5,761 nt of DNA from a virus (IMGVR_UViG_2675903559_000015); one strand, 5' to 3'. Counted from the first letter of the stretch, positions 2,394 through 4,998 are shown. Numbers and translations are program-made. Notes: generated from the sequence alone by a model not told the origin.

Positions 2394-2480
2394 ATGTCAG
2401 TGCTGGCTGACGGTGTGCTGGTGGCGGGTGTGGTGGTTGTTGCTTTCCCGTTGCTGAAAAAGAAAACGCCAGACTGTTAG
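2394..2480 (+). CDS. Candidate 28-aa hydrophobic mini-protein (MSVLADGVLVAGVVVVAFPLLKKKTPDC), single predicted transmembrane helix with basic tail
   Basis: Hand translation. Weak Shine-Dalgarno (gga) upstream. Could equally be a by-product of GTG-rich simple sequence. Last six codons lie inside repeat copy A. Confidence 0.2.
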   Translation: MSVLADGVLVAGVVVVAFPLLKKKTPDC

Positions 2481-2751
2481 CCGGGTATCAGTTAGCGGGA
2501 GAAATTTTTAAATACTTCACAATTCAGGCGGTTGACTGTTGTCTGGTTTGCGGGGAGTTTGTTAAAAGAAACTGGCATGGTGAATCCCCCTGTGCGGAGG
2601 GGCAATCAGCGAGTAGGTATATGGGATAATCGCGGATTCAGGTGCTGGTACTGAATTCACCGGGAGGCACCCGGCACCATGCAATGGCACATAGCGCCAC
2701 TCTCCAGCCCCTCTCCGGAGGGGCTGTTTATATTGATTTTGTCAGATGTGA
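2463..2751 (+). repeat. 289-bp structured repeat, copy A (identical to copy C; contains several GC-rich hairpins and ends in an intrinsic terminator)
   Basis: Direct comparison with 4710-4998 shows identity over the full 289 bp by eye; partial diverged copy at 2989-3208. Confidence 0.85.
2706..2740 (+). terminator. Intrinsic terminator at the 3' end of repeat copy A
   Basis: Perfect 8-bp stem agcccctc/gaggggct with tetraloop tccg, followed by gtttatattgatttt. Confidence 0.6.
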
Positions 2752-2752
2752 A

Positions 2753-2779
2753 CTGGTTCAAATCCAGCAAGGGCCACCA
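2753..2779 (+). pseudogene. 3'-terminal 27-nt fragment of tRNA-Ile(CAU) (ileZ), 5' part replaced by repeat copy A
   Basis: 2753-2779 matches 1649-1675 (T-arm, acceptor 3' strand, CCA); upstream sequence is repeat A, not tRNA. Confidence 0.8.
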
Positions 2780-2786
2780 TCACATA

Positions 2787-2863
2787 CCGCCATTAGCTCA
2801 TCAGGAAAGAGCGCCAGCCTTCGAAGCTGGCTGCGCGGGGTTCAAGTCCCCGATGGCGGTCCA
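2787..2863 (+). tRNA. argN: tRNA-Arg (UCG), second copy, identical to 1683-1759
   Basis: Sequence identity to copy 1 at constant offset of 1104 bp. Confidence 0.8.
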
Positions 2864-2876
2864 TTATCTGCATCAT

Positions 2877-2953
2877 GCGTTGTTAGCTCAGCCGGACAGA
2901 GCAATTGCCTTCTAAGCAATCGGTCACTGGTTCGAATCCAGTACAACGCGCCA
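2877..2953 (+). tRNA. argO: tRNA-Arg (UCU), second copy, one substitution relative to copy 1 (acceptor stem G to A, converting a T-G wobble into a T-A pair)
   Basis: Copy 2 reads gtacaacgcgcca where copy 1 reads gtacagcgcgcca; the remainder of the tRNA is identical. Confidence 0.85.
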
Positions 2954-2967
2954 CACTTATTTTCCCT

Positions 2968-2993
2968 GGCTCGCTTTTGCGGGCCTTTTTTTT
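2968..2993 (+). terminator. Intrinsic terminator immediately downstream of argO copy 2
   Basis: Stem ggctcgc/gcgggcc (one G-U wobble), loop tttt, then T8 tract. Confidence 0.65.
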
Positions 2994-3208
2994 AAATGTC
3001 TCACAATTCAGACGGTTGACAGTTGTCTGTTTTGCGGGGAGTTTGTTAAAAGAAACTGGCATGGTGAATCCCCCTGTGCGGAGGGGCAATCAGCGAGTAG
3101 GTATATGGGATAATCGCGGATTCAGGTGCTGGTACTGAATTCACCGGGAGGCACCCGGCATCATGCAATGGCACATAGCGCCACTCTCCAGCCCTCTCCG
3201 GAGGGGCT
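2989..3208 (+). repeat. Diverged partial copy B of the structured repeat (about 220 bp; lacks the first 42 bp of A/C; 5 substitutions and a 1-bp deletion in the shared part)
   Basis: Aligns to 2505-2725 of copy A; differences include cagacgg/caggcgg, ttgacagttg/ttgactgttg, ctgttttg/ctggtttg, ggcatcatg/ggcaccatg and cagccctc/cagcccctc. Homology resumes at 3274-3290 after a 65-bp copy-B-specific insertion. Confidence 0.8.
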
Positions 3209-3440
3209 TTTCTGTGCCGGATACATCACAGTTTCTGGAACCTTAGGTACTACAGTATCAGTCAGGGTGCTATATTTTCAGATGTGATGAAAGCCTGTCA
3301 GCAGGCAGGGCGTATCGGAAATGACCCAGTAGAGAAAACGTTGACTCAGATACCGGTGCTGAGTTACCGGGAAACCGGCATCACATGACCGCTATCCTGA
3401 GGTGTACTGGCAATAGCGGACACTACCATTTGTTCTTTTT

Positions 3441-4259
3441 TTAAGCAGCCATCTGATGATATTTTTCCCTGAAGGCTGCCGGGGAGATATTCCCCAGACG
3501 AGAGTGACGACGCTGACGATTGTAGAAAATCTCAATGTATTCCCGTATTACTGAGATGGCTTCATCCCGGTTATTAAAACGATAGTGGCTCAGGCTCTCA
3601 TTTTTCAGCGTTCCCCAGAAGCTTTCCATCGGAGCGTTGTCGTAACAGTTACCTTTACGCGACATTGATGTTTTCAGACCAGACTGCTCCTGTATGACCC
3701 GGTAATCGTATGCGCAGTACTGTGAACCTCGATCAGAGTGGTGGATTAGCCCGGCAGGTGGGCGCTGGCTCCTGAGCGCCATAAACAGGGCTTTACCTGT
3801 CAGCTCTTTTGTCATGCGCTCTCCCATGGCGTAGCCGACAATTTCGCACGTATAAACATCTTTGATGCCAGCGAGGTACAACCATCCCTCCTGTGTGGCA
3901 ACATACGTCAGGTCCGCCACCCAGACCTGATTTGGTGCTGTAGGAGCGAACGTCTGGTTCAGCAGATTTGGCGCAACTGGCAGATTGTGGTTCGAGTTCG
4001 TAGTCGCTCTGAACTTGCGTTTCTGCTTACAGCGTAGCCTTAGCTCCTTACGAAGACGTGCCAGTCGGTCACGACCAACGATGATGCCATTCTCTGCCAG
4101 CTCCGTCTGGAGCCGCCGGGTTCCATATGTTTCGCGAGTGCGGATATGTGCCACCTTAATCTCCAGTTTTAGCCGCTCATCACTTTGTTTTCTGTCTGAG
4201 GGTTCATGCTGTACCCAGTTGTAATAACCGCTCCTGGATACACCAAATACCTGACACAT
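3441..4259 (-). CDS. IS600 transposase OrfB (DDE catalytic domain); expressed as OrfAB fusion by -1 frameshifting, so the true OrfB frame extends upstream to about 4346
   Basis: ORF track; IS3-family signatures HSDRGSQY and YDNAPMESFWGTLK. Confidence 0.85.
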   Translation of the reverse strand: MCQVFGVSRSGYYNWVQHEPSDRKQSDERLKLEIKVAHIRTRETYGTRRLQTELAENGIIVGRDRLARLRKELRLRCKQKRKFRATTNSNHNLPVAPNLLNQTFAPTAPNQVWVADLTYVATQEGWLYLAGIKDVYTCEIVGYAMGERMTKELTGKALFMALRSQRPPAGLIHHSDRGSQYCAYDYRVIQEQSGLKTSMSRKGNCYDNAPMESFWGTLKNESLSHYRFNNRDEAISVIREYIEIFYNRQRRHSRLGNISPAAFREKYHQMAA

Positions 4260-4294
4260 CGCTTCAATGGGAAATTGTTGTCGCCATTGTTCGA

Positions 4295-4597
4295 TTAACG
4301 CGTATTTTTCAGCGACTCCTGTGCAAAATACGCTGTTGCTTTTTTTAATATATCTCGCTCAAGGCGAGCTTCATTTAACGCCTTACGCAGTTGCAGAATT
4401 TCAGATTCCAGTTCAGCCACCGTGCGGGAACCAGGAGTACCGAGCCCTTTTCTGGCGGCGGTAACCCATTGTCCTAAAGTGCCTTCAGGAAGAGATAATC
4501 GGGAAGCGCCTTCACTGATCGAAAGTTGATTTTCAAGAACCGTTCTGACAGCTTCGGCTTTGAACTCTTTAGAGTAACGTTGGGTTTTTCTGCTCAT
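4295..4597 (-). CDS. IS600 transposase OrfA (HTH and leucine-zipper part)
   Basis: ORF track; AGGAG Shine-Dalgarno 7 nt upstream of ATG on the minus strand; product begins MSRKTQRYSKEFKAEAV, which I recognise as IS600-type OrfA. Confidence 0.85.
   Translation of the reverse strand: MSRKTQRYSKEFKAEAVRTVLENQLSISEGASRLSLPEGTLGQWVTAARKGLGTPGSRTVAELESEILQLRKALNEARLERDILKKATAYFAQESLKNTR
4340..4346 (-). other. Candidate -1 programmed ribosomal frameshift site (A7 run) at the OrfA/OrfB overlap
   Basis: Seven consecutive A on the minus strand (T7 on plus) within the last codons of OrfA; OrfB is in the -1 frame relative to OrfA. Confidence 0.5.
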
Positions 4598-4709
4598 TAT
4601 TAGCTCCTTCTGATGCCATTCTATTTCAGGAAGGAGTGTCCGTTAAACTCAGGCTACCTCAGTCTCGTTCATTTTACTCACAGTACCGCCTCCTGAAATT
4701 TCCCCTGAT

Positions 4710-4998
4710 AAAACGCCAGACTGTTAGCCGGGTATCAGTTAGCGGGAGAAATTTTTAAATACTTCACAATTCAGGCGGTTGACTGTTGTCTGGTTTGCGG
4801 GGAGTTTGTTAAAAGAAACTGGCATGGTGAATCCCCCTGTGCGGAGGGGCAATCAGCGAGTAGGTATATGGGATAATCGCGGATTCAGGTGCTGGTACTG
4901 AATTCACCGGGAGGCACCCGGCACCATGCAATGGCACATAGCGCCACTCTCCAGCCCCTCTCCGGAGGGGCTGTTTATATTGATTTTGTCAGATGTGA
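4710..4998 (+). repeat. 289-bp structured repeat, copy C (identical to copy A)
   Basis: Direct comparison with 2463-2751; begins 48 bp after the IS600 end. Confidence 0.85.
4953..4987 (+). terminator. Intrinsic terminator at the 3' end of repeat copy C
   Basis: Same perfect 8-bp stem, tetraloop and U-rich tail as 2706-2740. Confidence 0.6.

Follow-up and report, generated by a model that had tools for sequence, protein, structure and literature searches.

Three STnc100 small RNA genes multiplied by recombination in the late region of a mosaic prophage

Introduction

What is the structured element that recurs three times between the tRNA genes and the lysis genes of the prophage-derived sequence IMGVR_UViG_2675903559_000015 (5,761 nucleotides; "the window" below denotes this whole stretch), and is it a gene in its own right, a leader of the late transcript or simply a terminator? 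An initial annotation, made from the sequence alone, described a thrice-repeated 289-bp element, copies A, B and C, and left its role between a non-coding RNA and a late-leader module. The copies are almost certainly members of STnc100 (RF02076, "Gammaproteobacterial sRNA STnc100"), a curated small RNA (sRNA) family of lambdoid prophages that Rfam has listed for years. The repeat is accordingly a true finding, and the gene that it carries is one already catalogued rather than a new kind of element. The functional unit is shorter than 289 bp and consists of a conserved promoter block, an RNA of ~160 nt and an intrinsic terminator.

The repeat contains three complete STnc100 genes

Copies A and C, both on the + strand, were recovered by a repeat finder as a 289-nt direct repeat of 100% identity, which ends exactly at the borders given in Table 1 with no extra shared base on either side. 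Copy B lies at 2947-3235 in the ungapped register (80%); its real homology runs from ~2989 to 3211 and is ~96% identical to the A-type copy of strain SK1144. The number, coordinates and orientation of the copies first described are therefore right, as is the statement that they share the strand of the methylase gene, the tRNA genes and the truncated late gene, i.e. the DUF1737 open reading frame (ORF). Copy B had been called a diverged partial copy; the flanks of the repeat are indeed missing from it, but the RNA gene is present whole. Inside the transcript it differs from copy A only by C2677T, which gives a G.U pair in P1, by deletion of one C of the terminator stem and by G2726T. Copy A positions convert to copy B by adding 484 and to copy C by adding 2247.

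A scan against all of Rfam, one of the checks that the initial annotation had proposed, matched STnc100 at 2546-2735, 3030-3219 and 4793-4982; the scores are 132.4, 123.6 and 132.4 bits, where 47 bits is the gathering score. All three matches are untruncated, spanning model positions 1-206 of 206, with E-values from 6e-30 to 1e-27. No other Rfam family matched over the element on either strand at E <= 1, a cut-off at which the whole scan gave 12 matches. The reading as a non-coding RNA gains from these full-length matches and from the fact that relatives are transcribed, detected on Northern blots and bound by Hfq. All 11 STnc100 copies of EDL933 have RNA-seq reads, and STnc100_4 was Northern-positive (PMC5331693); a review ranks STnc100 among the sRNAs most often annotated in bacterial genomes and gives no function for it (PMC9029176). 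Published reverse-transcription quantitative PCR primers for STnc_100, which served to detect the RNA in outer-membrane vesicles of two Shiga toxin-producing E. coli strains, agree exactly with all three copies of the window (2576-2668 and equivalents) but do not match the variant linked to stx2.

Of 5426 complete E. coli genomes, 2860 carry sequences like copy A, with as many as 12 places in one genome, and 1363 records reach 99% identity or more to copy A. Matches are present in 285 phage records, mostly of Shiga toxin (Stx)-converting phages; a scan of viral contigs with a pattern based on P2 yielded 2 loci only.

The repeat opens with 18 bp that belong to the 3' end of a DUF3927 ORF, and the ORFs overlapping the element have no Pfam or NCBIfam match, in agreement with the earlier statement that it encodes no credible protein. 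RefSeq annotation (PGAP, the Prokaryotic Genome Annotation Pipeline) leaves the RNA unannotated and places "hypothetical protein" genes on the opposite strand instead, three of four of them pseudogenes (loci L003, 5103-5228; L126, 3349-3474; L128, 298-539; L129, 301-601); these calls are likely annotation artefacts spread by homology. Two GTTAGC direct repeats in the 5' part had also been pointed out. Both exist (2476 and 2491), but the motif occurs 6 times in the window against 2.5 expected, a count reached by 8 of 200 shuffles, and the pair is absent from copy B and seen only in near-identical copies; it has neither significance nor conservation.

Table 1. Features of the window; parts of the RNA are given for copy A.
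Feature	Position	Strand	Remarks
Candidate tR' intrinsic terminator	9..28	+	81-100 nt after the Q stop by comparison with the homologous ATCC 11775 prophage; putative role
DNA methyltransferase gene	501..1559	+	Pfam PF01555, 144 bits
Three tRNA genes: CAU, Arg-UCG, Arg-UCU	1600..1849	+	CAU is Met by ARAGORN, tRNA-Ile in RefSeq
DUF3927 ORF	2349..2480	+	Pfam PF13064, 95.6 bits; last 18 bp are the start of copy A
Repeat copy A	2463..2751	+	DUF3927 3' end, spacer, STnc100 gene, 17 bp flank
Promoter/regulatory block	2518..2568	+	Conserved in diverged relatives; putative promoter
Conserved CACAATTCAG	2518-2527	+	Upstream block
TTGACT	2532-2537	+	Upstream block
-35-like TTGTCT	2539-2544	+	Followed by 18-nt spacer
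Extended -10	2560-2568	+	TGT 2560-2562, TAAAAG 2563-2568; upstream block
Predicted STnc100 RNA, ~160 nt	2575..2734	+	Predicted 5' end G2575; 3' end in the U-tract after the terminator
P1 5' strand GCAUGGUG	2575..2582	+	Pairs with 2675-2682
P2 hairpin	2586..2601	+	CCCCC 2586-2590, loop UGUGC 2591-2595, GG-A-GGG with A2598 bulged
Pseudoknot strand S1 AUCAGC	2605..2610	+	Pairs with 2644-2649
P4 hairpin GGAUUCAG / CUGAAUUC	2634..2658	+	2634-2641 with 2651-2658
P4 loop	2642-2650	+	Holds pseudoknot strand S2 GCUGGU, 2644-2649
P5 hairpin CCGGG-AGGCA-CCCGG	2660..2674	+	Most conserved block of the family (Rfam consensus)
P1 3' strand CACCAUGC	2675..2682	+
Linker AAUGGCACAUAGCGCCACUCUC, 22 nt	2683..2704	+	Core to terminator; candidate seed/Hfq region
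Intrinsic terminator	2705..2734	+	Hairpin 2705-2726; 9-bp stem CAGCCCCUC/GAGGGGCUG, UCCG loop, tail UUUAUAUU
Second tRNA cluster, 5'-truncated	2753..2966	+	97% identity to 1649-1862; recombination joint after copy A
Contents of second cluster		+	Ile tRNA 3' end; Arg-UCG 2787-2863; Arg-UCU 2877-2953
Strong intrinsic terminator	2968..2993	+	After second tRNA cluster, directly 5' of copy B
Copy B, complete STnc100 gene	2989..3211	+	Promoter block 3002-3052; predicted start 3059; core 3059-3166; terminator 3189-3211 with 1-nt stem deletion
IS600 (IS3 family), 1264 bp	3398..4661	-	orfA 4295-4597, orfB 3441-4259
Different DUF3927 allele, 3' remnant	4662..4727	+	Ends ...SFILLTVPPPEISPDKTPDC, stop; cut by IS600, just 5' of copy C
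Copy C, same sequence as A	4710..4998	+	Promoter block 4765-4815; predicted start 4822; core 4822-4929; terminator 4952-4981
iraM-like anti-adaptor gene	5008..5343	-	NCBIfam NF007393, 162 bits; downstream of copy C; same place in SK1144
DUF1737 ORF	5604..5730	+	Pfam PF08410, 57.1 bits; first gene of late/lysis block; IS600-truncated
Second IS600 end	5731..5761	-	Same orientation as first; interrupts DUF1737 ORF

The RNA core is a conserved pseudoknotted structure

Covariation across homologues, also proposed at the outset as a check, was examined in relatives fetched with the P5 block as search pattern from species-representative genomes. Over 100 loci were obtained, in Kosakonia, Enterobacter, Klebsiella, Pantoea, Salmonella, Citrobacter, Rahnella, Erwinia and other Enterobacterales, of which 92 cores, each below 90% identity, formed the alignment set. 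In these 92 relatives P1 has 92.4% of its cells paired with changes on both sides in 6 of 8 pairs, and P4 75.6% with such changes in 7 of 8 pairs. P2 is paired in 99.3% in a register that bulges A2598, with three of its five pairs compensatory in 14-19 sequences, and this register suits all variants better than that of Rfam. Pairing over the structure as a whole reaches 81.0%, while shuffles give 71.1 +/- 0.5 (none of 500 reached the observed value) and slid partners 41-45%; the overall covariation score is 0.320, against 0.147 shuffled and 0.074-0.120 with slid partners. P5 is invariant in this set because it was the search pattern and is uninformative on covariation. Unpaired nucleotides are near-invariant as well, i.e. 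GAAU after P1, GC in the P2 loop, GCG before P4 and the P5 loop, and a variable stretch separates S1 from P4.

The P4 loop pairs with the segment following P2 to form a pseudoknot. Counts taken from the MAFFT alignment (39.6% paired) are meaningless here since the P4 loop is misaligned; the pseudoknot was therefore tested sequence by sequence with three controls, the measure being, in each of 88 relatives, how long a duplex the 15 nt that follow P2 can form with the P4 loop of the same RNA. The mean best duplex is 6.08 bp, against 4.48 +/- 0.11 bp with permuted partners (reached in none of 2000 permutations), 4.31 bp with the loop reversed and 4.22 +/- 0.10 bp with shuffled loops. A duplex of 6 bp is attained by 72% of the sequences, as compared to 15% once the loop is reversed; the duplexes of 6 bp or more comprise 51 different ones, and the upstream strand begins at offset 1-3 in 54 of 63. 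The same pseudoknot is kept in the PasD sRNAs of enteropathogenic E. coli (EPEC), where AAUGAUC pairs with GAUCAUU; a preprint analysing PasD/STnc100 structure does not mention it. Because P1, P2 and P4 show compensatory changes and the pseudoknot is strongly supported, the RNA is truly structured.

For the window itself, a folding energy of -69.2 kcal/mol (z -2.34) was computed for the predicted transcript of 163 nt; the minimum-energy fold of copy A recovers P1, P4, P5 and the terminator, and P2 takes the Rfam register in it, not the bulged one. The copy A terminator is the top-ranked terminator-like site in the window scan. The hairpin and UCCG tetraloop reported for it earlier are borne out, but the stem is of 9 bp, not 8, and the U-tract is short and interrupted. 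Among the 92 relatives a strict terminator finder reported terminators in 33, a fraction that is not firm since imperfect stems are visibly missed. The P2 3' strand GAGGGGC could pair with the terminator 5' strand over 7 bp (within 2596-2603 and 2707-2716) because both hairpins carry a CCCCU/AGGGG stem. A riboswitch-type expression platform was considered on this ground and rejected: the terminators of a relative (L123) and of PasD are unrelated by inspection, so that the pairing is not conserved in them, and the complementarity in the window is probably incidental.

A promoter-like block lies at a fixed distance from P1

The initial annotation found no convincing sigma-70 promoter. A promoter-like block can nevertheless be located directly upstream of P1, apparently overlooked because its -10 is of the extended type (TGT-TAAAAG) and lacks the final T. 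Across the family, TAnnnT hexamers ending 4-7 nt 5' of P1 occur in 52 cases among 89 sequences, as opposed to ~2 per position elsewhere, and TTG peaks ~28 nt upstream of P1. Since these -10-like and TTG peaks stand at fixed offsets, most members appear to be transcription units of their own that begin at P1. Within the clade of the window, relatives with a diverged RNA interior still retain this upstream block.

The 5' ends of PasD2 (741157) and PasD1 (1060260), estimated from RNA-seq coverage and in agreement with Northern sizes, fall exactly on the first G of the GCAUGGUG homologue. Because of these ends and the position of the -10, the RNA 5' ends in the window are predicted at 2575, 3059 and 4822, i.e. 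~29 nt inside the start of the Rfam model.

Proposed mechanism and alternatives

The best-supported mechanism, to which we give somewhat better than an even chance, is that of an autonomous, Hfq-dependent sRNA acting in trans. Each copy would be a self-contained gene, a prophage "moron" between the Q region and the lysis genes, with a sigma-70 promoter (TTGTCT, 18 nt, extended -10) starting the RNA at G2575 or its equivalents. The first ~108 nt would fold into a compact core of P1, P2 with its bulged A, the variable region, the P4 pseudoknot and the near-invariant P5, and the 22-nt linker and intrinsic terminator would complete the ~160-nt RNA. In the lysogen the RNA would be produced independently of late transcription and, together with Hfq, would act in trans by way of the 3' tail that linker and terminator form, after the manner of EcOnc27/sRNA103 and PasD, whose Hfq contacts lie in the 3' tail, the 5' core giving stability or a second activity; upon induction, Q-modified polymerase would read through the terminator. 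Of the features expected of a moron, the terminator is present and the unit is variably present and variably placed in related prophages, while the promoter is putative, with support from position-specific conservation and from the homologues' 5' ends. Family membership, the structure, the mosaic and the 5' ends of homologues are shown; promoter use, trans action with Hfq and targets are inferred.

Several observations weigh against this mechanism. The evidence for expression and for Hfq comes from relatives rather than from the strain of the window or the exact locus; a simple consensus promoter scan did not report the TAAAAG -10, in which the conserved final T is absent; and the PasD 5' ends could be processed ends. 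The terminator U-tract UUUAUAUU is short and interrupted, weaker than that of typical Hfq-dependent sRNAs and much weaker than the eight U's of PasD. Above all, the part conserved in the family is the pseudoknotted core, with 3' tails that vary by subfamily, which seed pairing does not explain. Finally, the sole effects reported for the family are those on fimZ and espA upon sRNA103 overexpression (PMC12711010, PMC7873438, PMC9029176).

The conservation of the core raises the alternative that it is the functional part, a ligand- or protein-binding domain (a riboswitch-like sensor, a decoy or a sponge) for which pairing by the 3' tail is secondary and the short terminated "sRNA" is an off-state product or mere carrier. 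Five helices, a well-supported pseudoknot, near-invariant unpaired nucleotides and helices whose sequence is free as long as pairing is kept would all suit such a domain, as would the settings of some relatives: cores without obvious terminator precede KdgM-family porin genes by ~200 nt (8 of the 72 downstream neighbours), stand immediately 5' of small ORFs, form tandem arrays or are joined to tRNAs, and phage cores lie just 5' of nanS-p esterase genes. Nevertheless, we consider it unlikely as an account of the element, since inspection shows no conserved core/terminator switch, the neighbouring ORFs include no conserved co-encoded protein partner, the gene downstream of A and C in the window is the opposite-strand iraM, and homologues have Hfq-dependent interactions with many mRNAs. 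The broader proposal, that the STnc100 core is a widespread ~100-nt pseudoknotted Enterobacterales domain with its own small-molecule or host/phage-protein binding activity, is offered as a speculation with a slightly better, still minor, chance. If true, different loci would join one core to varied outputs (an Hfq seed tail and terminator, leaders of KdgM porins or small ORFs, arrays, tRNA fusions), and EcOnc27, PasD and the three window copies would be sensors or decoys, not plain base-pairing regulators.

The element could also be a transcriptional insulator in cis whose terminator, with others close by, blocks read-through from the tRNA promoter and those upstream into the lysis genes in the lysogen and is overridden by Q-modified polymerase upon induction, the RNA being incidental: the element is always found in the interval between Q and the lysis genes and in late-gene orientation, and the window is rich in terminator-like sites (17, versus 5.7 +/- 2.9 expected). 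This is improbable, since a covarying, pseudoknotted core of 108 nt and a promoter of its own are needless for termination alone, the family is also found on plasmids and outside late operons, and a stronger terminator (2968-2993) already stands ahead of copy B. The initial annotation listed a processed leader, attenuator or antiterminator-responsive RNA beside an sRNA as possibilities, noting that the element sits where Stx phages have the short pR' transcript or the toxin promoter. The late-region location and terminator end, and a relative close to stx2B, are in keeping with a pR' late-promoter leader, attenuator or Q-utilisation RNA, but this is very improbable. Window position 2 aligns 74 nt past the Q stop codon of ATCC 11775, so that the copies lie 2.4-4.7 kb beyond the expected place of the short pR' transcript, with a 65-codon ORF, the methylase and three tRNAs between the window start and copy A. 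The terminator at 9-28 suits the position of tR' better and is more likely than STnc100 to be the tR' of that transcript. In Stx2 phages, moreover, the relative lies downstream of stx2B and not in the Q-stx interval, which is occupied by a separate sRNA, StxS. The leader reading is further opposed by the promoter-like block, the PasD 5' ends on P1 and the STnc100 members known from non-phage contexts and outside late operons. A second intrinsic terminator is found at 337-354, and the 65-codon ORF (153-350) lies between it and that at 9-28.

A last reading, of negligible probability, takes the element for a piece of a coding sequence or for the end of a mobile element, an outcome that the initial annotation regarded as fatal to its view. 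It is suggested by the antisense "hypothetical protein" pseudogene fragments of RefSeq and by the IS600 between copies B and C; however, family searches find no protein match to ORFs across the element, the variation is that of compensatory pairing and not codon-like, and the IS600 ends (3398 and 4661) are 50-190 bp from the copies with unrelated DNA intervening.

Relatives in other settings

Outside the prophage late region the core is found in diverse arrangements. One subfamily (GUGUGGUGAAUCCCCCUAAGCGG...GGGGUCAUGCUGAU...) lies on the strand of a KdgM-family porin gene, ~135-200 nt upstream of it in most loci (L015, L030, L038, L050, L056, L082, L091 and L118, from Kosakonia, Enterobacter, Klebsiella, Raoultella and others). 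A strict terminator search between these cores and the porin genes found none, with a finder that misses imperfect stems, and the KdgM-linked core, instead of being a free sRNA, may be a 5' leader. In a variant class P2 is replaced in fully compensatory fashion by GCGGC...GCGCACGC, P1 is extended and the core lies 20-40 nt 5' of the start codons of small ORFs (L005, L019, L020, L027, L086, L067, L100, L110, L113); L020 scores 47.8 by Rfam against the gathering score of 47, and L005, L019, L100 and the related L007 gave no match when scanned. Tandem arrays of 4-6 cores spaced ~200-370 bp apart, some without terminators and some adjoining tRNA genes, are seen in L049 (Pantoea plasmid pAPP145_2), L096 and L080 (Pantoea), L077 (Superficieibacter) and L029 (Enterobacter).

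Core and tRNA gene are direct neighbours in L094 (core 4622-4740, tRNA at 4749) and L114 (core 4776-4903, tRNA at ~4901). As a general rule, the link between STnc100 and tRNA genes was rejected, since a tRNA lies within 8 kb in only ~17 of 109 non-E. coli loci; the association holds in prophage contexts, not generally. A conserved protein partner was likewise sought and rejected: a Pfam survey of the nearest ORFs, 72 downstream and 70 upstream, gave a heterogeneous set in which KdgM (8), Q (5-6) and LuxR-type proteins (5) were the most frequent.

Origin of the three copies

Two gene orders are recognized in related prophages. Type 1, as in SK1144, runs Q, tRNA-Ile/Arg/Arg, DUF3927, STnc100, iraM on the opposite strand, DUF1737 and holin; type 2, as in ATCC 11775, runs Q, a 65-codon ORF, the methylase, tRNAs, STnc100, DUF1737 and holin. 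DUF3927 followed by the sRNA is also the order in SK1144, phage mEp460 and EPEC E2348/69. As assembled, the window is a mosaic of the two: 1-2751 follows type 1, the sequence jumps at 2752 into the second tRNA cluster, and type 2 (copy B and 186 bp) continues to IS600, beyond which lie the remnant of the other DUF3927 allele, copy C, iraM and the DUF1737 ORF cut by the second IS600. Its best whole-length matches are in the O104:H4 lineage, and none of the complete E. coli genomes in the collection covers more than 73% of it in one place. The three copies are thus the product of recombination between two prophage late-region types together with IS600-associated rearrangement, not a functional array.

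The joint after copy A (2745-2760) falls within the T-arm of the Ile tRNA (...GATGTGA at the left side and ACTGGTTCAAATCC... at the right), with almost no crossover homology, and the second cluster therefore opens with a 3' tRNA fragment. The complete IS600 is flanked by tcc and gtc, i.e. without a 3-bp target-site duplication, which fits recombination between IS copies better than simple insertion. As the two IS600 copies are in the same orientation and the complete one lacks a duplication, the 1069-bp segment between them (copy C, iraM and DUF1737') could be deleted or amplified by IS600 recombination. A 117-codon ORF at 1960-2313, between the tRNA genes and DUF3927, has no Pfam or NCBIfam match and is present in O104:H4-type prophages. 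In Escherichia albertii NBRC 107761 (L112, 4809-5646) the same slot, between the tRNAs and iraM, holds a pair of neighbouring STnc100 copies with 78% and 94% identity to copy A; multiple copies at this position are therefore also found outside the window.

Significance

In pathogenic E. coli, STnc100 and its relatives count among the most abundant sRNAs carried by prophages. They adjoin stx2, and sequence variants right after stx2B, in a region that this RNA overlaps, were recently tied to clinical outcome (PMC12711010). The analysis gives handles for experiment in the gene boundaries (the promoter block, with the 5' end placed at P1 and not at the Rfam start), in a pseudoknotted core supported by covariation, and in a modular layout in which a conserved core is joined to an exchangeable 3' tail. 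The window also illustrates how a regulatory RNA gene can be multiplied in one late region through recombination of prophages and IS600.

Comparison with known systems

The window copies have the helices, terminator and prophage context of STnc100 and differ from it in nothing essential; to the Rfam model the analysis adds the bulged-A register of P2, the pseudoknot between the segment after P2 and the P4 loop, and a predicted 5' end at P1. The nearest characterized relatives of the window copies are EcOnc27 (= sRNA103) and the PasD sRNAs. EcOnc27 is an Hfq-bound sRNA found by Hfq-CRAC (cross-linking and analysis of cDNA) and Northern blot, and its overexpression raised fimZ and espA transcripts (PMC12711010, PMC7873438). 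An STnc100 copy ~75 nt past stx2B overlaps EcOnc27/sRNA103 (PMC12711010), and the stx2-linked copy of the present set (L002) is, from the same position, presumably EcOnc27 itself. Its promoter block, P1, P2, P5, linker and terminator are near-identical to those of the window, the linker AAUGGCACAUAGCGCCACUCUC being identical, and it occupies the same slot between late promoter and lysis genes; the variable region, P4 and both pseudoknot strands differ in sequence with pairing kept. Unlike that locus, the window has no stx genes. Hfq-binding sRNAs of this sort sit between the late promoter and the lysis genes in at least 8 Sakai prophages (PMC7873438).

The anti-sRNAs AgvB and AsxR are prophage Hfq-binding sRNAs that form "dyads" with RNAs such as EcOnc27 and EcOnc06 (PMC7873438) and lie in the same prophage inter-region as STnc100; neither AgvB (RF02702) nor AsxR (RF02703) matched either strand of the window at E <= 1, and no dyad partner is detectable there. 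StxS, which binds Hfq (PMC7873438), and the lambda 6S RNA are likewise short terminated RNAs from the late regions of lambdoid phages, but they start at pR' right after Q and need a Q-utilisation site, whereas the window element is ~2.4 kb further on, has a putative promoter of its own and is unrelated in sequence.

A parallel in organization is seen with PasD1 and PasD2 of EPEC E2348/69, homologues of EcOnc13. These are abundant sRNAs with reported Hfq-dependent stability and many partners by RIL-seq (sequencing of interacting RNAs after ligation), in which the chimeras map to the 3' ~50 nt and the seed to the 3' tail (PMC8550237). They share with the window the order DUF3927, promoter, P1-P2-pseudoknot-P4-P5, tail and terminator, as well as the 5' end at P1. 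Their STnc100 scores, 41.4 and 37.7, fall below the Rfam threshold of 47, and P5 is reduced; the 3' tail is longer and U-rich, with the seed UGUGAG and an 8-U terminator, while that of the window is shorter and different. Identity at the level of sequence was rejected, since the interior and 3' tail differ and no seed is shared. The likeness is one of architecture and gene order, and descent of PasD and STnc100 from one ancestor has been proposed in a 2026 preprint (10.64898/2026.05.13.724894).

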